Source: Nitrososphaerota archaeon
GTDB lineage: Archaea; Thermoproteota; EX4484-205; JAAOZP01
Direction: 5' to 3'
Length of the DNA: 64,000 nt
NCBI GenBank assembly: GCA_011605725.1
Contig: JAAOZP010000014.1
Location: 64,001-128,000 of the forward strand
Shown: one piece after another, positions 13,461 through 30,664 of the stretch
Layout of the letters: the number at the start of each line of letters is the position of its first letter
Position numbering within the stretch: position 1 is the stretch's first letter
Position numbers and translations under genes: made by a program
Notes under the pieces: generated by a model
Told to the model about the DNA's origin: nothing
What the model saw: only the letters and a program-made list of their open reading frames with translations
Databases searched by the model: none

Positions 13461-13535
13461 GCGGCGCTGGTCTAGCCTGGTTATGACACCAGCCTTCCAA
13501 GCTGGGAATCCCGGGTTCAAATCCCGGGCGCCGCA
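13461..13535 (+). tRNA. tRNA-Gly(TCC)
   Basis: Full cloverleaf, anticodon arm CCAGC-CTTCCAA-GCTGG; TATA-like TTTATAA upstream. Confidence 0.95.
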
Positions 13536-13577: not shown

Positions 13578-13943
13578 ATGGGTAAGAGGATGGTGATGAA
13601 TATCGCAAGGGAGAGGATAGACATACTGCTTAGGCTTGCGCTGGAAACTGCGGAATCCGACTTGAGCAGGGCTGAATCATATGCCAAGCTTGCCTGGAGG
13701 ATTGCTGAGAAATACAACCTTAGGAGGAAGACCGTGTTGAGAAGATACTTTAGATGTAGTAAGTGTAAGAGCCCAGTGATACCTGGTCGTAGCCTTAAGA
13801 TTAGGGTTTTGAAAGACAAGGGAGTGGGGCTCATCTGTTTGAAGTGTGGAAGCGTCAAGCTTATTCCAGTTTTCCGCGAAAAAGATAAGAATCCTGGTGT
13901 TGAAGCATATTCGACCAGGTTTGAGTCTAGAGCTTACGGCTGA
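13578..13943 (+). CDS. rnp4: Ribonuclease P protein Rpp21
   Basis: IARERIDIL, CSKC...PG...CLKCG Zn ribbon. Confidence 0.88.
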   Translation: MGKRMVMNIARERIDILLRLALETAESDLSRAESYAKLAWRIAEKYNLRRKTVLRRYFRCSKCKSPVIPGRSLKIRVLKDKGVGLICLKCGSVKLIPVFREKDKNPGVEAYSTRFESRAYG

Positions 13944-14538
13944 AGTGGAGCGTTTCACGAAAGCATTCATATTGCTGTTCGTCATACTCGATTCTGTTGG
14001 AAACATTCCTGTTTTCCACGCTTTTCTAGAGTCCTTCTCAAGCGAGAGGAGGAGGAAGATAATAAGGGAGTCTGTCGTCGCCGCGACAGCAGTGCTAGTG
14101 TTCTTCGCCATGCTTGGAAACATAATGTTCAGCTTCCTCGGGATAAGGCTATATGACTTCTACGTTGCTTCAGGAATGGTTCTTGTAGCAATATCCTTAA
14201 AATACATACTTGTGGGTGAGGAGAGCGAGCTGAGAGGGGAAAAGGCTGAGGAGATCTCTGTCTTCCCCCTGGCTACGCCGCTTCTCGCAGGTCCGGGAAG
14301 TATTTCCACAGTCATAATAATATCTAACCCTCCATATAACATTCTGATTTGCATACTAGTAATACTGCTGAACGCGGTTTTAGCATACGTGATCCTTGTT
14401 AACGGTGAGAGGATTATGGCGAGCATAGGCAGAACTCCTTCGAAGCTTATTGCGAAAATATTCAACTTGATAATAGTGGCTTTCGGGATAGTTATGATTA
14501 GAAACGGTTTAGAAGGATTTCTACAGTTACCCGGGTAG
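13921..14538 (+). CDS. MarC family membrane protein
   Basis: LFVILDSVGNIPVF, FPLATPLLAGPGSI; start taken at TTG 13921. Confidence 0.88.
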   Translation: MSLELTAEVERFTKAFILLFVILDSVGNIPVFHAFLESFSSERRRKIIRESVVAATAVLVFFAMLGNIMFSFLGIRLYDFYVASGMVLVAISLKYILVGEESELRGEKAEEISVFPLATPLLAGPGSISTVIIISNPPYNILICILVILLNAVLAYVILVNGERIMASIGRTPSKLIAKIFNLIIVAFGIVMIRNGLEGFLQLPG

Positions 14539-14553
14539 CTTTAGAAGAAAAAG

Positions 14554-14716
14554 TTAATATAGTAGTGGAGCGGTCTCCGCTGAGGAGGTGTATAGTGCAC
14601 ATGGCCAGCAACGCCCAAAGGGGGCGAGACTACCTGCGTTGCAGAGACAGCGACACCTCTATCGGAGTCTGCTGAAAAACAATATTGTTTTAAACCTGTT
14701 TTAGGAGGGTTTCGTA
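14554..14716 (+). promoter_or_regulatory. leu operon promoter and leader (TATA, uORF, hairpin, main SD)
   Basis: TTAATATA 14554-14561, GGAGGTG 14584-14590, palindrome AAAACAATATTGTTTT 14676-14691; shares motifs with the ilv leader. Confidence 0.7.
14595..14675 (+). CDS. Putative leu operon leader peptide (26 aa) MHMASNAQRGRDYLRCRDSDTSIGVC
   Basis: GTG 4 nt after GGAGGTG; AxRGRD in the same register as the ilv leader peptide. Confidence 0.6.
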   Translation: MHMASNAQRGRDYLRCRDSDTSIGVC

Positions 14717-16252
14717 ATGGTTTGGAGAGGATATATTGCTGAGGCTGAAATACCTGGCAGGGTGATTCTTTTCGACACTACTTTAAGAGATGGTGAACAG
14801 ACTCCTGGAGTCGCGCTTACGCCCGAGGACAAGCTTAAGATAGCGAGACAGCTGGACTTGCTTGGAGTACCCGTATTGGAAGCAGGCTTTCCAGCAGCGT
14901 CGCGCGGCGAGGAGGAGGCTATTAAGCAGATAGCTAGAGAAGGGTTGAACGCGGAGGTCGCTGCCTTATCCAGATGCGTGAAGGAGGATGTTGAGAAGAC
15001 TGCTTCAACCGGTGCACGGAGAATACATCTTTTCATAGCAACCTCAGACATACATTTGAATAAGAAGCTGCAGATAAGCAGGGATGAAGCTGTATGCAGA
15101 GCGGTTGAATCCATAGACCTTGCTAAATCCTACGGTATGAAAATAGAGTTTTCAGCTGAGGATGCGACTCGGACGAGCATCGATTTCCTAGTGGAGTTTT
15201 ACAGGAGGGTTGAAGAGGCGGGAGCAAGCATAGTCGACATTCCTGATACTGTTGGTGTTGCAACACCCTTTGCTATGAGGGAGATTGTTAAGAGGGTTCG
15301 CAAAGCCCTGAGGATCCCGGTTGCAGTGCACTGTCACAACGACATGGGTCTAGCAGTTGCGAACACGCTTGCAGGCATTGAGGGCGGAGCCTCTGAGGCG
15401 CATGTAACAATTAATGGACTTGGGGAGAGAGCAGGCAACGCGAGCCTAGAGGAGGTGGCGGTTTCCCTGAAAGTATTGTATGGTGTTGAAACAGGCTTAA
15501 AGTTTAAAGAGATATACAACACTTGCAGGCTTGTCTCACTGATAACTGGCGTAGCAATACCTGTGAATAAGCCTATAGTTGGAGAAAACGCTTTCTCCCA
15601 TGAGAGCGGTATCCATACTCACGGCATACTGGCGTCTCCAGAGACTTACGAGCCTATAGACCCTGGGTTTGTTGGAGCTAGGAGAAAGCTGGTAGCTGGA
15701 AAGCACGCCGGTGTCCACGGGATTTCAGCGCAGCTTGAAGAAATGGGGTACAGGCTTAGTGAGGAGGAGTTGAAACAGGTTCTTAAAATAGTTAAGGATA
15801 TTGGCGACAAGGGTAAGAAGGTTACTGACGCGGAACTCGCCTCGATAGCTGAAAGCGTTATAGGGTACGGGGTCGGTGAGAAGGATCGCATCGAGCTTGA
15901 AGAGCTTCTGGTGGTCACTGGGTTAAACACGACGCCGACAGCAGCAATAAAGATAAGAAGGGGTGAACAGGCTTGGAGAGGAGCGGAGTTCGGAGTGGGG
16001 CCGATAGATGCTTCGATGAAGGCAGTCAGCAAGCTTCTTGGAGACCTGGTTAAGATTAAGCTTGAAAGCTTCAGGTTGGAGGCAATCACGGGAGGCACGG
16101 ATGCGCTTGCAGAAGTTACGGTCAGGGTTTCAGATGAAGAAGGGAGGAGTGTGACTGCGAAGGGATTCAGCGAGGACATTGTGCTAGCAGGGGTTTACGC
16201 GATATTAAACGGGGCTAACAGGCTTCTGCAGATTAAGAGGGCTGGTAGATGA
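14717..16252 (+). CDS. leuA: 2-isopropylmalate synthase (or citramalate synthase CimA)
   Basis: DTTLRDGEQ, HCHND, GERAGNA, HESGIH, C-terminal regulatory domain. Confidence 0.88.
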   Translation: MVWRGYIAEAEIPGRVILFDTTLRDGEQTPGVALTPEDKLKIARQLDLLGVPVLEAGFPAASRGEEEAIKQIAREGLNAEVAALSRCVKEDVEKTASTGARRIHLFIATSDIHLNKKLQISRDEAVCRAVESIDLAKSYGMKIEFSAEDATRTSIDFLVEFYRRVEEAGASIVDIPDTVGVATPFAMREIVKRVRKALRIPVAVHCHNDMGLAVANTLAGIEGGASEAHVTINGLGERAGNASLEEVAVSLKVLYGVETGLKFKEIYNTCRLVSLITGVAIPVNKPIVGENAFSHESGIHTHGILASPETYEPIDPGFVGARRKLVAGKHAGVHGISAQLEEMGYRLSEEELKQVLKIVKDIGDKGKKVTDAELASIAESVIGYGVGEKDRIELEELLVVTGLNTTPTAAIKIRRGEQAWRGAEFGVGPIDASMKAVSKLLGDLVKIKLESFRLEAITGGTDALAEVTVRVSDEEGRSVTAKGFSEDIVLAGVYAILNGANRLLQIKRAGR

Positions 16253-18056: not shown

Positions 18057-18917
18057 ATGAAACTATTACTGTTGCAGCGGAGAGAAGCAGTTAGAAGGGA
18101 GGCTGTTGGCAGTTATTCCTGCGAGCAGTGTGGGCGTCCACTGAGCCCTGAATACAAGTTCTGCCCAGCCTGCGGAACCCCGCGGAGAGGAGTCTCCTAC
18201 GTTAGGAGGGTTTCAACAGGCAACCCGGCTATAGACGAGATTCTGGAGGGTGGTTTCGAAGTGGGTAAAACATATCTGCTCGCCGGGGAGGCTGGAACCG
18301 GTAAGACGATTTTCAGCTTACAATACCTCTTACACGGGGCTAAGAATAATGAGCCCGGAATATATGTTACGATAGACGAGAGGCCGGAGATGCTTGTTAG
18401 AGACGTGAGGAACTTCGGCTGGGATCTTCAGCCGCTCATAGAGACAAAGAAGCTTGCGATACTCCCGGTTAGGAGATACTTCACCTCCAAGATGTGGGGG
18501 AGGGAAATGGACACTATAGTTAACAACATAATAGAGGAGCTTGACAGGAGGAGGAGGGAGATAGGGGCTAAGAGGCTTGTCATAGATCCTATAGCCCCGT
18601 TGGTAACTACTTATTCGAACGAGGTTGCATGGGTTAGAGAATACATCAGGAGCCTCATATTCTCTATTGAGGAGAAGCTCGGTGTAACCACGGTTATAAC
18701 GTCAGAAGTCCCTACTGGGGAGAACATGATGAGCAGGTATGGTGTTGAAGAGTTTCTGGCGAGCGGCGTAATATTACTATCCCTGTCTAGAGTTGGGAAC
18801 TCCATAATAAGGACGATGTTTATAAGGAAGATGCGCTGGACTGCTGTGAACCCAACGATCTACAGGTTTGAAATAGAAAGGGGTCGTGGAATAGTTCTTA
18901 AAGAACCGTTAAGCTAA
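18057..18917 (+). CDS. KaiC/RAD55-like ATPase with N-terminal zinc ribbon
   Basis: CEQC...CPAC, GEAGTGKT, LVID, IRKMR. Confidence 0.85.
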   Translation: MKLLLLQRREAVRREAVGSYSCEQCGRPLSPEYKFCPACGTPRRGVSYVRRVSTGNPAIDEILEGGFEVGKTYLLAGEAGTGKTIFSLQYLLHGAKNNEPGIYVTIDERPEMLVRDVRNFGWDLQPLIETKKLAILPVRRYFTSKMWGREMDTIVNNIIEELDRRRREIGAKRLVIDPIAPLVTTYSNEVAWVREYIRSLIFSIEEKLGVTTVITSEVPTGENMMSRYGVEEFLASGVILLSLSRVGNSIIRTMFIRKMRWTAVNPTIYRFEIERGRGIVLKEPLS

Positions 18918-19601: not shown

Positions 19602-21134
19602 CTAAGGGCATTTTTCAACCGTGGAGAAGGAGAAGCCCTTGACAAGCCTGCTTACAGCGTTTTCCAGAAGCATCCTAGCCTCCGTGTCTTTCTGAAGCAT
19701 CAGGCTAAGCTTTGAGAAACACTCTTTTAAAACGTTCTCCCTGTCTGCGAGCATCATTTTATCAGCCTCGGGAGAGCCTGCGCCTAAGGATACTCGCTTC
19801 GAAGCGACAGCACTCGCGTCAGCCTCTTTCAGTATTTTCATCAGTAGACCGCTAACGTCTCTGCCTAACACGTTCAGGGAAACACTTTTTAAATCCTCCT
19901 CGTTGAGACTATTCATCTTCCTGCCGGTTTTAACGCTGAGCTTAACAATCTCCCCCACCAACCTGTGGGCAAGCCTGAATGGAACCCTGGCTTCCTCAAC
20001 TATTCTTTCAGCAACATCCAAGGCAATAATGTTTGGCTCAGTTAAAGACCTTATTCTCTCACGGTTCTCCTTAAGATTCTCAAGAACAATTCTAACGATT
20101 CTAACTGCTTCCCTGCTTGTTTCAATAGCCTCGATCAACGGGGGCTTGGTTTCCTGAAGATCTCTAACATAGCCGCTGGGCACTGCCTTGCAAACCATCG
20201 AGAGCTGAGCTAGACTTGAGAAAACCCTTCCTGTTCTCGCACGGGTCAGCTCAAGTATGCAAGGATTCTTCTTATGTGGCATCGCGCTCGATGGGAAAGC
20301 CAGCTCGTCTGGAAGCGTGAAGAAACCGTATTCTGAGGAAAGCCAGATTATAAGGTCCTCCATAATCCTGCTCAGGTTAAGCATGAGAATGTTGAGGTTT
20401 GAAACAACCTCCAGCGCGAAGTCTCTTGACGAAACAGCGTCGAACGAGTTCTCCACAACACCGTCGAACCCTAGGAGCCTCGTAGTGAGACTCCTGTCTA
20501 TCTTAAGCGAGGAGCCGACTATAGCAACGCTCCCTAAAGGATTCTGGTTAACCCTTTTAAAGGATTCTGAGAGTCGGTTAAAGTCTCTCAGAAACACGTC
20601 GAAATACCCTAGGAAATAGTGTGAAAGAGGAGCAACCTGAGCCTGTTGCAGATGAGTGTAGAACGGGAAAACTACGTCAAGAGTCTCTCCAGCCTTCTTT
20701 AGAAGAGTTGCCTCAAGCTTAAGCAGCTCTCCCATAATGCTTAAGACTTCTCTCCTCGTCTTAAGCCTCACCGCCGTGACAACCTGATCATTCCTGGAGC
20801 GAGCCGTGTGAACAAGGCCTCCTACCTCCATCCCAGCCTGCTTAACTACATAAGACTCTATGAGTTCATGAACATCCTCGTACTTTTCAAGGTCGAGCTG
20901 ACTCAAACCTTCCTCTCTAAGCCTTTTAAGAGCCTCAAGAATCTGTTTAAGCTGCTCCTCAGTAATATAGCCCTGTTTCATAAGCATGAGGTCGTGCGCA
21001 ACCGTGCATTCAATATCCTCGTTAAATATCCAAGCGTCTTCCCTAATGCTGGACACGTATCTCGTGGCCTCTGAGGAAACCGGTCCAAGCCTGCTCCTAT
21101 ATATGCCTCCGGAAGCATCCTGCTCCATTGACAA
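19602..21134 (-). CDS. argH: Argininosuccinate lyase
   Basis: HTARSRNDQV, YTHLQQAQ, SSAMPHKKNP. Confidence 0.93.
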   Translation of the reverse strand: MSMEQDASGGIYRSRLGPVSSEATRYVSSIREDAWIFNEDIECTVAHDLMLMKQGYITEEQLKQILEALKRLREEGLSQLDLEKYEDVHELIESYVVKQAGMEVGGLVHTARSRNDQVVTAVRLKTRREVLSIMGELLKLEATLLKKAGETLDVVFPFYTHLQQAQVAPLSHYFLGYFDVFLRDFNRLSESFKRVNQNPLGSVAIVGSSLKIDRSLTTRLLGFDGVVENSFDAVSSRDFALEVVSNLNILMLNLSRIMEDLIIWLSSEYGFFTLPDELAFPSSAMPHKKNPCILELTRARTGRVFSSLAQLSMVCKAVPSGYVRDLQETKPPLIEAIETSREAVRIVRIVLENLKENRERIRSLTEPNIIALDVAERIVEEARVPFRLAHRLVGEIVKLSVKTGRKMNSLNEEDLKSVSLNVLGRDVSGLLMKILKEADASAVASKRVSLGAGSPEADKMMLADRENVLKECFSKLSLMLQKDTEARMLLENAVSRLVKGFSFSTVEKCP

Positions 21135-21412
21135 CCCTAAGCCGGATGAACCTGCAGAAACATGCTAATAAGGGTTACATGAAAAACGGTTTGAAACATT
21201 CTGAAGGCTTAAAAGCGATCAGCATTTTACGGGTTTCCCTAGAGACAAGTGGTGGCGAGCTAAGATTCTACAAGGGTTGAGACGCCTCCGGTAGTCCAGA
21301 AGCATGTGAATCACACTCCACGGAAAGCCTTTCCCCCGGTTTTCTACGCGCGCAAAAAGCAGCGGGCAAAACTTAAAAGGCTCAAAAACAAGTATTTCAA
21401 GAGGAACTCGTC

Positions 21413-26728: not shown

Positions 26729-28402
26729 CTACCTCCTTACGATGACTCTGTCAAGCGGGGCAGCCGGGGGAACCATTGGGAAAACATTATCCTCTCTCGC
26801 GACAATCACGTCTAACACAGTTGTCTCATCCTGCTTTAAAGCGGTTTCAAGAGCGTTTTTAAGCTCGCTTATCCTCGTCACTTTAAACCCTTTAGCGCCG
26901 AAACCCTCTGAAACCCTAGCTATGTCAGCTCTGCCCTTCAAATCCACAGCCATATACCTCCTGCCGTAGAAAAGCTCCTGCCACTGTCTAACCATGCCCA
27001 GGAAATAATTGTTAAGAACCAAGACTATGATCGGCAGGTTATAGTCTACTGAAACCGGAAGCTGGTTACAAGTCATGAAGAAGCTACCGTCTCCAGCTAT
27101 GTCGAAAACACGGCTCTCCGGGAAGGCTGCTTTAACCCCGATCGCAGCCGGAAGCCCGAAGCCCATTGTGCCAAGTCCGCCGGAGGATATGAATTGTCTC
27201 GGACGCTTAGCTGTAAAGTGGAGTGAAGCATACATCTGGCACTGGCCTACCTCCGTCGTCACAAAGTCTTCAGCCTTAACATAGTCGTTCAGAACCCTTA
27301 CGGCAGTACTTGGATCAACCGGAACAGCATCGTAATCGTAAAGGAACTCAGATTCCTTCTTGAGCTGTTTAACTCTTTCACCCCACGTAGCAGCCTTGCC
27401 CTTCTTGAAAAGCCTGAGAATCGTTTCGCGAATCCTGATTAAAACCTGCTTAGCGTCACCGGCGACGCCAAGGTCGGGCTTAAGCAGCTTCCCGATTTCA
27501 GACCTATCTATGTCAACATGTATCTTCCTCGCTCCCGGGGCGAAGCCGCTTAACTTACCAGTAGTCCTGTCGCTAAACCTCATGCCTACTGCAAGAATCA
27601 GGTCGCTCTCCTGAACAGCCTTGATCGCGCCTAGCTTCCCATGCATTCCAACCATGCCTAGGGACAACGGATGGTCTTCAGGAATGCTTCCCTTGCCCAT
27701 TAGAGTCGTCGCTACGGGAGCGTTTAGAAGCTCAGCAAGGGCGATAAGCTCGCTGGACGCGCCTGATATTATTACTCCGCCTCCAGCTATGATCACAGGC
27801 CTCTCAGCCTCAACCAGCATCTTTGAGACTGTTAGAATCTCCTCGTCGGAGGGAGAGGGAGGAGTATAAGAGTAGATGTAGAAATCGTCATCAGGCTCGC
27901 CCTCCATCAGCTGAACATCCCTAGGGACGTCGATGTGAACAGGCCCAGGTCTTCCGGATAAGGCTATTTTAAAAGCGTTCTCAAGCGCAGAGTTAAGCTC
28001 GTTTAAGTCTCTAGGTAGAAAGTTCATCTTCGTCAACCCTATCATCATCGAGAAAACATTAGCCTCCTGAAAACCGTCGTAACCTATGAGAGGCGTCGCA
28101 ACCTGGCCGGCTATGCTTAAAACCGGCGAGGAATCCAAGTAGGCGTTGGCAATTCCTGTTGCAAGATTAGTGGCGCCAGGGCCGGATGTGGCGACGACAA
28201 CGCCAATCCTGCCGGTTGCCCTAGCATACCCGTCAGCCATGTGGGCAGCACCCTGCTCATGCCTCGCGAGAATGAACTCTATGTCGCCAGCCTTATAAAG
28301 CTCGTCTAGAAACGGGAGCACAGCCCCACCGGGTACTCCGAAGATGGTTTTAACCCCGTTCTCCCTCAGCTTCTCAACTAGTAGTCTAGACCCTGAAACC
28401 AT
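26729..28402 (-). CDS. ilvB: Acetolactate synthase large subunit
   Basis: RHEQGA, TSGPGATN, GLGTMGFG, GDGSF; start at ATG 28402 after SD GAGGTG. Confidence 0.95.
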   Translation of the reverse strand: MVSGSRLLVEKLRENGVKTIFGVPGGAVLPFLDELYKAGDIEFILARHEQGAAHMADGYARATGRIGVVVATSGPGATNLATGIANAYLDSSPVLSIAGQVATPLIGYDGFQEANVFSMMIGLTKMNFLPRDLNELNSALENAFKIALSGRPGPVHIDVPRDVQLMEGEPDDDFYIYSYTPPSPSDEEILTVSKMLVEAERPVIIAGGGVIISGASSELIALAELLNAPVATTLMGKGSIPEDHPLSLGMVGMHGKLGAIKAVQESDLILAVGMRFSDRTTGKLSGFAPGARKIHVDIDRSEIGKLLKPDLGVAGDAKQVLIRIRETILRLFKKGKAATWGERVKQLKKESEFLYDYDAVPVDPSTAVRVLNDYVKAEDFVTTEVGQCQMYASLHFTAKRPRQFISSGGLGTMGFGLPAAIGVKAAFPESRVFDIAGDGSFFMTCNQLPVSVDYNLPIIVLVLNNYFLGMVRQWQELFYGRRYMAVDLKGRADIARVSEGFGAKGFKVTRISELKNALETALKQDETTVLDVIVAREDNVFPMVPPAAPLDRVIVRR

Positions 28403-28577
28403 TTGAAACACCTCTTGCAAACGGCTTTTTGAAAACCACTGTTTTCTCTAGCGGAGGCTGGGTTTGCAGCGGGACTCCTGCAGTTGGTGGACGGTGTCCC
28501 GCCCCCTTGGAGCGTGAATATTATGGTACACTCAGCGCACCTCCTAAGCAGTGTGCCCATTGAGAGGCCTATATTAA
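28403..28577 (-). promoter_or_regulatory. ilv operon promoter and leader (TATA, uORF, hairpin, main SD)
   Basis: TTAATATA at 28577-28570, GGAGGTG at 28544-28538, hairpin GAAAAC-AGTG-GTTTTC at 28446-28431. Confidence 0.7.
28448..28531 (-). CDS. Putative ilv operon leader peptide (27 aa) MYHNIHAPRGRDTVHQLQESRCKPSLR
   Basis: GTG 6 nt after GGAGGTG; AxRGRD at codons 7-12 as in the leu leader. Confidence 0.6.
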   Translation of the reverse strand: MYHNIHAPRGRDTVHQLQESRCKPSLR

Positions 28578-28596: not shown

Positions 28597-29298
28597 CTAA
28601 ATACCGTCGATACGAATATTCCTGGTTTCTACCGAGCAGGCATACAAGGCTAAGACGTAGAGCGGCAGGGAAACAAGCAGAACAACCAGTATCAATATAC
28701 TGCGAAATCCAACAGTAAACTCTTTAAGAAAGAGCTGTTGACCCTGCGGCTGGCTCGCCTCCTGGGTTATTAAGAAAGGAGATATCGTTACGCTGAAGAT
28801 TATCACGCAGAGAAAAATGGCTGTAGTGTTCGCGAGCTTTCTTAAAACCTCCTTAGAAAGACCATATCCGACGGCTAGTGAGAAAAGCCAGTAACCATGC
28901 GTTGCCAATAGGAAATGAATCAAACCGTTAAAATCATTGAAGATAAGGGGAGATCGTAACACAGGTATTAAAACTATAAGTGTTTTAAGCTCTAGCAGGA
29001 TGAGGGAAACAAGAGAATGCGCTAAAAACGGTATGTACTCAGACATGGCTGTGTAAATCTTTAGCTTAAAACCCTTGTTTAAAAATTCCATGCGCCAAAT
29101 CTCAAGCTCAGAAAGGGTTGAGCAGAGAATTATAACTAACCATACTGCTGGGAGTAAAGCGCGCACGCTAACAATAGGTTCGAAGGAACCAGGGCATAGT
29201 AGTGTATAGGCGGCTAATGCTACTGGGGCAAACTCCAGGGTCATGAAGAGCGGTGAAGTGAAGAAGAGCTTCAGCTCCCGGTCAACAAGGTTAGCCAA
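28597..29298 (-). CDS. ABC-2 type permease-like membrane protein
   Basis: About six TM helices, N-terminal LVDRELK; follows an ABC ATPase-like gene. Confidence 0.6.
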   Translation of the reverse strand: MANLVDRELKLFFTSPLFMTLEFAPVALAAYTLLCPGSFEPIVSVRALLPAVWLVIILCSTLSELEIWRMEFLNKGFKLKIYTAMSEYIPFLAHSLVSLILLELKTLIVLIPVLRSPLIFNDFNGLIHFLLATHGYWLFSLAVGYGLSKEVLRKLANTTAIFLCVIIFSVTISPFLITQEASQPQGQQLFLKEFTVGFRSILILVVLLVSLPLYVLALYACSVETRNIRIDGI

Positions 29299-30589: not shown

Positions 30590-30664
30590 GCGGCGCTGGT
30601 CTAACCTGGTTATGACACCAGCCCCCCAAGCTGGGAACTCCGGGTTCAAATCCCGGGCGCCGCA
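30590..30664 (+). tRNA. tRNA-Gly(CCC) with atypical C33 and A15-U48
   Basis: Near-copy of the tRNA-Gly at 13461; anticodon loop CCCCCAA. Confidence 0.88.

Follow-up and report, generated by a model that had tools for sequence, protein, structure and literature searches.

Candidate cis-regulatory leaders with conserved short reading frames before the leuA-leuCD and ilvBNCD operons of a hot-spring archaeon

Control of amino-acid operons by leader peptides is a textbook bacterial mechanism, represented for the branched-chain amino acids by leuL, ivbL-ilvBN and ilvL-ilvGMEDA of E. coli. A literature search gave no description of leader-peptide control of such operons in archaea, and the bacterial type of attenuator cannot simply be copied there because archaeal RNA polymerase terminates without hairpins. 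How might an archaeon, then, match the expression of these operons to the supply of their amino acids? The question is raised by a 64,000-nucleotide (nt) stretch of DNA (the window, to which all coordinates refer) from the 2.23-Mb genome of a Brockarchaeota-type hot-spring archaeon. The window carries leuA-leuC-leuD on its plus strand, LeuA domains being found in the leuA product, and ilvB-ilvN-ilvC-ilvD on its minus strand. Each operon is preceded by a leader of approximately 160 nt, and the layout is common to both: a B recognition element (BRE) and TATA box (GAAAR-TTAATATA), a Shine-Dalgarno (SD) sequence GGAGGTG, a short open reading frame (ORF) with a GTG start, its stop codon, a T-rich spacer (41 or 45 nt in the two window leaders), a second SD and the first gene.

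The best explanation of the observations set out below is that these are two paralogous, lineage-specific cis-regulatory leaders, one serving leuA-leuCD and the other ilvBNCD. That they are functional cis-regulatory elements with a translated upstream ORF (uORF) we regard as very probable. The fuller explanation, in which amino-acid supply is sensed at a Leu or Val codon and each part of the leader has an assigned role, seems to us evenly poised between right and wrong.

The 19-nt core of the leaders, CGCYCMAAGGGGGCGRGAC, matches the window twice, against 0.11 matches expected, and the whole genome contains only two sites (with up to two mismatches allowed), before leuA and ilvB. With each GTDB species represented by one genome, an exact-pattern scan gave 29 matches, two per genome, all in hot-spring metagenome-assembled genomes with titles such as Candidatus Brockarchaeota, Thermoproteota archaeon or similar; three additional bacterial matches are about the number calculated for chance. 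Whole-genome searches of 16 other species of the genus recovered the leu leader in 15 and the ilv leader in 15, the gaps being incomplete assemblies. With a sequence profile of the core, each genome of the genus yields exactly two copies and the order's three other families yield none; leuA, if present in those families, lies directly after ilvD or another gene and has no leader. In all, the leaders are represented in 17 of 17 species of the genus, always before leuA and ilvB, and no site was seen elsewhere in the order or, chance matches aside, in GTDB. Sequencing runs that carry the locus are exclusively runs of hot-spring and sediment DNA. The comparisons below use 47 distinct leaders (22 leu and 25 ilv) taken from genomes and metagenome contigs.

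When the short ORFs of the genome were scanned in six frames for A-x-RGR[DE], nothing beyond the two known copies appeared, and a scan for the architecture of TATA box, SD and short ORF returned the same two together with spurious-looking items. Elsewhere in the genome, sequences close to the 12-mer core were considered as possible trans-acting complements and set aside: they are scattered and lie outside RNA genes. A leader candidate at 21219-21314 (minus strand), upstream of argH (19602-21134, minus strand), has an ORF of 28-31 codons with three consecutive Arg codons (DYRRR). It was rejected as a third member of the family, as its ORF region is unconserved across the genus and only the argH start region aligns; on that comparison it probably does not encode a leader peptide.

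The short reading frame and its core

The uORF frame, defined by AGG-GGG-CGR, is open in all 47 leaders, with a start codon placed 6-14 nt behind the SD, a length of 20-29 codons (20-23 in one ilv clade) and a stop codon 32-54 nt upstream of the first gene. Three independent events that have altered it respect the frame: a 6-nt deletion in one species, the exchange of the ancestral GTG-TAC start for an ATG two codons downstream in one leu clade, and a new, earlier stop in one ilv clade. The shared peptide is M-(Y)-x4-A-x-R-G-R-D-x followed by Leu or Val, the two families reading A-x-R-G-R-D-x-Leu (leu) and A-P-R-G-R-D-x-Val-x-Q-Leu (ilv), and the C-terminal halves are unrelated. Its Ala, second Arg and Asp show synonymous changes (GCC/GCT, CGA/CGG and GAC/GAT, respectively). 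A sequence-only reading of the window had allowed that the conserved unit might be an RNA motif or a protein-binding site and the peptide incidental. This is contradicted by the frame being open in every leader, the in-frame insertions and deletions, the relocated start and the synonymous variation, all of which indicate that the peptide frame is not incidental; we infer that the uORF is translated.

The conserved codon string is GCY NNA AGG GGG CGR GAY NNN, followed by CTG in leu or GTC in ilv leaders. There is no synonymous variation in AGG GGG among the 47 leaders, so that the nucleotide-level constraint which the sequence-only reading proposed for the motif is right for the G-run. The sole variant of the G-run, AGGAGG, changes Gly to Arg, destroys the core hairpin and is a better SD. 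The CGA that follows the G-run is the rarest Arg codon of the genome (2.0 per 1000 codons, 3% of Arg codons). When AGGGGGCGA is set against the 3' end of 16S rRNA, GGATCACCTCCT, eight of the nine positions pair, and the change of CGA to CGG preserves the last pair as G-U. Because of this pairing, and because the only variant improves the SD, we take the G-run to be an internal SD-like site. It stands 6 nt from codon 13 and 9 nt from the Leu/Val codon, and no leader has an insertion or deletion in between; the commonest SD-to-start spacing in the genome, counted on 5'-proximal starts only, is 8-9 nt. The Leu/Val codon occupies position 14 and is CTG in 22 of 22 leu leaders and GTC in 25 of 25 ilv leaders. 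The conserved Leu codon of leu leaders is thus a single one; in ilv leaders a single Val codon is accompanied by one or two for Leu, a CTG lying three codons beyond the GTC. The amino acid of codon 8 differs between leaders (Q, R, K, L, P or I), but the third base of the codon is always A. Across the genus, the flanking codons diverge while the core and the Leu/Val codon stay invariant.

These patterns bear on two other ways of understanding the core. The nascent peptide itself might act, as TnaC, the fungal arginine attenuator peptide or SpeFL do, with A-x-R-G-R-D-x-L/V stalling the ribosome from within the exit tunnel when free Leu or Val, or the tRNA in the A site, is sensed. Its conserved residues fall in the tunnel-proximal zone, 2-7 positions ahead of the Leu/Val codon, and both the retention of Ala, Arg and Asp through synonymous changes and the unconserved C-terminal half would suit an arrest peptide. 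Such a peptide would not, however, explain why AGG GGG shows no synonymous change, why its one change replaces Gly by Arg within the motif, or why codon 8 fixes its third base while its amino acid varies. In addition, it is hard to see how a ribosome that stalls 70-90 nt before the main start would repress it, and we know of no arrest motif that matches the uORF peptide. Arrest by the peptide is, in our view, very unlikely.

Alternatively, the core could be the site of an RNA-binding regulator or a DNA operator, with the ORF secondary. A 12-nt block that is invariant as nucleotides could be read in this way, as could the inverted repeat CGCYC..GGGCG that the core forms, the lack of a matching Rfam family (see below) and a second palindrome between the TATA box and the transcription start site (TSS) of ilv promoters. 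The 5' half of the core repeat is nevertheless free (CGCCC, AGCCC, TGCTA, TGCCA) and the 3' half fixed, unlike a dyad operator; the ORF, SD, start and phase to the core are kept in 47 of 47 leaders; and the element is too short for a ligand aptamer. We give a protein site in the core only a slim chance, whilst the second palindrome makes protein control of these promoters plausible anyway.

RNA structure of the leaders

The sequence-only reading had described three RNA elements in each window leader, namely a hairpin formed by the core codons, an anti-SD near the end of the uORF and a U-tailed hairpin directly after its stop, and had proposed that mutually exclusive folds convert ribosome position into termination or SD sequestration. 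All three elements are present in both window leaders, at the positions that this reading gave (Table 1). As an architecture shared by the family, the description holds for the core hairpin sequence and the anti-SD, which are conserved; the post-stop hairpin is not family-wide, and none of the three has covariation support. Across the two alignments (22 leu and 25 ilv sequences), 96-99% of the cells of the core hairpin are paired (96% in leu, where its 3' arm is invariant), as are 98-99% of those of the helix of uORF SD and anti-SD. No pair of the core hairpin has changed on both sides in any of the 47 leaders, and the SD/anti-SD helix has one pair with a two-sided change, in a single leu sequence. 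The leu covariation score was equalled in 64 of 500 column shuffles, and the covariation terms from RNAalifold are -0.5 and -0.7 kcal/mol. Since the helix columns are nearly invariant, these results establish conservation and not structure.

The anti-SD keeps its position in nearly all 47 leaders, although it is degenerate in a few leu leaders. Its codon phase is shifted in one species; conservation of position through a shift of phase points to a constraint at the level of RNA. In one ilv clade the anti-SD reads TCACCTCCT, a 9-nt copy of the 16S 3' end. Mean duplex energies with the uORF SD, the main SD and the G-run are -12.2, -8.4 and -7.6 kcal/mol in leu leaders and -12.4, -10.4 and -12.2 kcal/mol in ilv leaders. 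Pairing of the anti-SD with either SD, as had been proposed, is therefore possible on energetic grounds, with the uORF's own SD preferred.

The post-stop hairpin fares less well. It is paired in 76-81% of cells, with a few double changes, and unrelated sequence takes its place in distant clades of both families, amounting to half of the genus. Its energy at 37 °C is -2.4 kcal/mol in the leu leader of the window (z = -0.5 relative to shuffled sequences) and -4.6 kcal/mol in the ilv leader of the window (z = -0.8); the T-runs after it range from T2 to T6, mostly four, with two or three in some ilv leaders; and a terminator scan found no terminator-like site in the leaders. The label of a U-tailed hairpin is thus not borne out. 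In our reading the AU hairpin is specific to certain clades and lies outside the mechanism.

Attenuation by alternative folds would require that a stall at the Leu/Val codon rearranges the hairpins, either blocking a U-tailed terminator or freeing the main SD. Several features are consistent with it: the anti-SD is complementary to both SDs, RNAalifold pairs the ilv anti-SD with the main SD, the ilv G-run could pair either with CGCTC on its upstream side or with CGTCCNCC or ACGCCC on its downstream side, and T-rich tracts lie 5' of both main SDs. Set against these are the lack of compensatory change in the core hairpin, the preference of the leu anti-SD for the uORF SD, and the marginal, unconserved post-stop hairpin with its short T-runs. 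The leaders were also folded at 37 and 65 °C in several states: free, with the footprint of a ribosome at the sensor codon masked (alone or with a second ribosome queued), and with the ribosome placed on the stop codon. The predicted accessibility of the main SD hardly differed, being 0.51 free, 0.49 stalled and 0.52 at the stop in leu, and 0.36, 0.37 and 0.40, respectively, in ilv, with similar values at 65 °C; the mutually exclusive folds thus gain support neither from covariation nor from the effect of a masked ribosome. It should be noted that these tests of a fold switch are weak, as the columns are nearly invariant and the thermodynamic models coarse. Simple stall models also predict the wrong sign, with the operon off under starvation, and to our knowledge archaeal intrinsic termination is independent of hairpins. 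Taking both sides together, we consider attenuation by alternative folds unlikely. The Rfam search that the sequence-only reading had suggested gave no match at gathering score in the window, and the region 14450-14800 gave only one sub-threshold match, to a miRNA; in this respect the leaders differ from the cis-regulatory families in Rfam (leaders, riboswitches and the T-box).

The +1 frame as a possible read-out

A different kind of feature is seen in the frame +1 relative to the uORF. No stop interrupts this frame, in any of the 47 leaders, from the G-run up to the main ATG or at least to a point no more than 6 nt short of it. In 42 of them its stop lies 14-34 nt inside the first gene, and in the other five at TAATG or 3 nt before the ATG. 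No start codon occurs in it between the G-run and the main ATG. Six leu leaders have a +1-frame TAA directly 5' of GGG GGC, so that the frame there opens exactly at the G-run. When the distinct stop sites between core and ATG are counted, leaving out the uORF stop, frames 0, +1 and +2 have 5, 0 and 13 in leu and 10, 1 and 0 in ilv leaders; counting alignment columns once, at most one of approximately 21 stop columns falls in the +1 frame. A rough P for this deficit is 0.002, or 0.005 allowing for the choice between two frames, in either case uncorrected for phylogeny. In 20 of 22 leu leaders the spacer lengths (41, 38 and 32 nt) are a multiple of three apart, and it is in the two exceptions and in one ilv clade that the +1 frame ends at TAATG or 3 nt before the ATG. 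The -1 frame was rejected as a shared route, being closed early in most leu leaders.

A mechanism can be outlined that gives each of these features a part. Transcription would probably begin at or just 5' of the uORF SD, and a ribosome would translate the uORF. The G-run and the rare CGA or CGG codon would form a pausing or positioning module through pairing with the 16S 3' tail of the elongating ribosome, and the decoding of the single Leu/Val codon would report the supply of charged tRNA-Leu or tRNA-Val. The anti-SD, as a mimic of the 16S tail, may serve mainly to close the uORF SD once the first ribosome has loaded, as the duplex energies suggest. If charged tRNA-Leu (leu) or tRNA-Val (ilv) became scarce, the G-run would hold the ribosome with the hungry codon in the A site, and the held ribosome would slip into the +1 frame, the only one that is free of stops up to the start of the first gene. 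The shifted ribosome would then translate the anti-SD, the spacer and the main SD, terminate at or just past the start of the first gene, and deliver or unmask initiation there, so turning the gene on. Ribosomes that did not shift would stop at the uORF's own stop codon, too far upstream for reinitiation. In Haloferax volcanii, termination-reinitiation is lost at a distance of 22-23 nt (PMC10666635), and frame-0 ribosomes, with 32-54 nt to cover, should therefore not couple to the first gene.

The nearest model for the shift is the prfB frameshift cassette of release factor 2 (RF2), in which an internal SD-like consensus AGGGGG lies three nt before CTT T (PMC12421855). A starvation-triggered +1 switch would be a prfB-like recoding on a sense codon, in an archaeon, and several observations weigh against this and against sensing as such. 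There is a single Leu or Val sensor codon and no run of them; neither CTG (19% of Leu codons) nor GTC (18% of Val codons) is rare; and the leu and ilv leaders, being two paralogs, owe their difference in codon to one event. The codon that precedes the sensor (TAC, AAC, AAT, CAC; ACC, CCC) is unconserved and mostly non-slippery, unlike the CTT T of prfB, and 6 nt separate the SD-like site from the P-site codon, compared with 3 nt in prfB. Dinucleotide shuffles keep the +1 frame open in 10-19% of trials per sequence for leu and 13-52% for ilv, and the stop-site statistic is only suggestive because the sequences are related. The leu +1 frame contains Leu codons, including a CTA within the anti-SD, which would stall the shifted ribosome again. 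Finally, the +1 frame of most leaders overlaps the first gene by 14-34 nt, an arrangement in which reinitiation is only presumed. We therefore put the frameshift switch forward tentatively, with its chances well below even, whilst noting that +1 run-through is currently better supported than hairpin switching.

One cognate codon, and a Leu-Val difference that counts as one event, are also what would be seen if the uORF were constitutive and sensed nothing, the leader serving for ribosome loading, standby or mRNA stabilization and having been inherited by duplication; the strong, separate SD in front of each main gene would be in keeping with this. Yet the leader is confined, genome-wide, to two branched-chain amino acid operons, and the core and Leu/Val codon are strictly invariant precisely where the flanking codons diverge. 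A uORF without sensing accordingly strikes us as improbable, and sensing at the Leu/Val codon remains the reading that we prefer.

Promoters, neighbouring genes and known systems

The positions of the leader features are collected in Table 1. For ilvB, a mechanical ORF call had placed the start at TTG 28420; this was rejected in favour of ATG 28402, which the conserved SD and the alignments indicate.

Table 1. Features of the leu and ilv leaders in window coordinates
Feature	Position	Strand	Remarks
leu TATA box TTAATATA	14554-14561	+	purine-rich BRE GAAAAAG just 5'; invariant in 47/47 leaders
leu uORF SD GGAGGTG	14584-14590	+	invariant; complementary to 16S 3' end GGATCACCTCCT
leu uORF, GTG..TGA, 26 codons, MHMASNAQRGRDYLRCRDSDTSIGVC	14595-14675	+	alternative start ATG 14601; stop 14673-14675
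leu core hairpin CGCCC-AAAGG-GGGCG	14612-14626	+	
Invariant core AGG GGG CGA GAC	14619-14630	+	SD-like G-run and CGA
leu candidate sensor codon CTG	14634-14636	+	9 nt after G-run
leu +1 frame, from GGG GGC through spacer, leuA SD and ATG	14620-14742	+	stop TGA 14740-14742; no start codon upstream of leuA ATG
leu anti-SD ACACCTCT	14653-14660	+	ACACCTC 14653-14659; mimic of 16S 3' tail
leu post-stop palindrome AAAACAATATTGTTTT (AAAAC...GTTTT)	14676-14691	+	directly after TGA
leuA SD GGAGG; start ATG	14704-14708; 14717-14719	+	
ilv TATA box TTAATATA	28570-28577	-	
ilv uORF, GTG..TAG, 27 codons, MYHNIHAPRGRDTVHQLQESRCKPSLR	28448-28531	-	SD GGAGGTG 28544-28538; stop TAG 28450-28448
ilv core: hairpin, AGG GGG CGG GAC, Val codon GTC	28490-28514	-	hairpin CGCTC-CAAGG-GGGCG 28514-28500; GTC 28492-28490
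ilv +1 frame, through ilvB SD and ATG	28378-28506	-	stop TAG 28380-28378
ilv anti-SD GCCTCC	28453-28458	-	
ilv post-stop hairpin GAAAAC-AGTG-GTTTTC	28431-28446	-	after TAG
ilvB SD GAGGTG; start ATG	28414-28409; 28402-28400	-	

The window contains two tRNA-Gly genes, whose mature 5' ends lie 24-25 nt after their TATA boxes, and from this geometry the TSS of the leaders is placed at about the uORF SD (approximately 14583-14587 in leu). The tRNA-Gly genes (13461-13535 and 30590-30664, with anticodons TCC and CCC) have near-identical promoters, AAAACTTTTAT(A/T)AACCACC, and precede the leu and ilv leaders by approximately 1 kb and 2 kb, respectively. The tRNA-Gly(CCC) reads the GGG of the leader core, which may be coincidence. 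A run of aragorn without intron handling gave 21 tRNAs for the genome and is uninformative on tRNA-Arg(UCG) and tRNA-Leu(CAG).

The second palindrome of the ilv promoters, GCC(C)..(G)GGC, follows the TATA box directly at 28555-28569 (minus strand) and at the same position in other ilv promoters, and is found in only five of 22 leu promoters. Its mean z is -1.6 and its inner sequence is species-specific (for example CCTCATG/CATGAGG and GCCCCC/GGGGGC). By the geometry of the tRNA promoters it lies upstream of the TSS, and could therefore serve as an operator for a transcription factor instead of forming an RNA hairpin. Of the neighbouring genes, one for a MarC-family membrane protein (13846-14538) lies upstream of the leu leader and one for a KaiC-family ATPase with an N-terminal zinc ribbon (18057-18917) directly 3' of leuD; the ilv leader is preceded by an ORF of 233 amino acids (28597-29298, minus strand) that matches nothing in Pfam.

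The arrangement recalls several known systems and is identical to none. With the E. coli attenuators it shares a short, SD-led ORF (its translation being predicted here) in the 5' leader of leu and ilvB operons, codons matched to the operon (Leu before leu, and Val with Leu before ilvB, as in ivbL), and the putative logic of sensing by a translating ribosome. It differs from bacterial attenuators in its archaeal host, in having one sensor codon and not a tandem run, in lacking both a covarying terminator/antiterminator pair and a terminator of GC-rich stem and U-tract before the first gene, and in its conserved G-run/RGRD core. As in translational attenuation of ermC and cat, a leader ORF is accompanied by an anti-SD able to pair with the main SD; here no drug is involved, the accessibility of the main SD is predicted, by coarse thermodynamic models, to be unaffected by a ribosome at the sensor codon, and the better partner of the anti-SD is the SD of the leader ORF itself.

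The lysis gene of phage MS2 is expressed by frameshift, out-of-frame termination and reinitiation. Here, too, a ribosome in the alternative frame would terminate near a start codon and initiate there, five leaders ending in TAATG or 3 nt before the ATG; unlike the MS2 case, the +1 stop lies inside the first gene in 42 of 47 leaders and the main genes have their own strong SD. Coupling of termination and reinitiation does occur in archaea (PMC6728339, PMC10666635). The prfB cassette is comparable in that an SD-like AGGGGG stands a few nt before a candidate slow codon, with the +1 frame open downstream (PMC12421855); there, the rate at which the slow codon is decoded reports the regulated quantity, and the same logic is proposed here. 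The slow codon in the archaeal leaders would be a sense codon (Leu/Val) in place of UGA, the slippery CTT T is missing, the SD-like site is differently spaced, and the +1 frame, if it is entered, leads to the start of the next gene and encodes no product.

A conserved pair of leaders with operon-matched Leu and Val codons would show an archaeal solution to the problem that bacteria solve with their attenuators. The pair also makes a compact test system, of approximately 130 nt, with a built-in control in the form of two paralogs that differ at the sensor codon. If true, the +1 read-out would put recoding to a new use, that of sensing metabolism.

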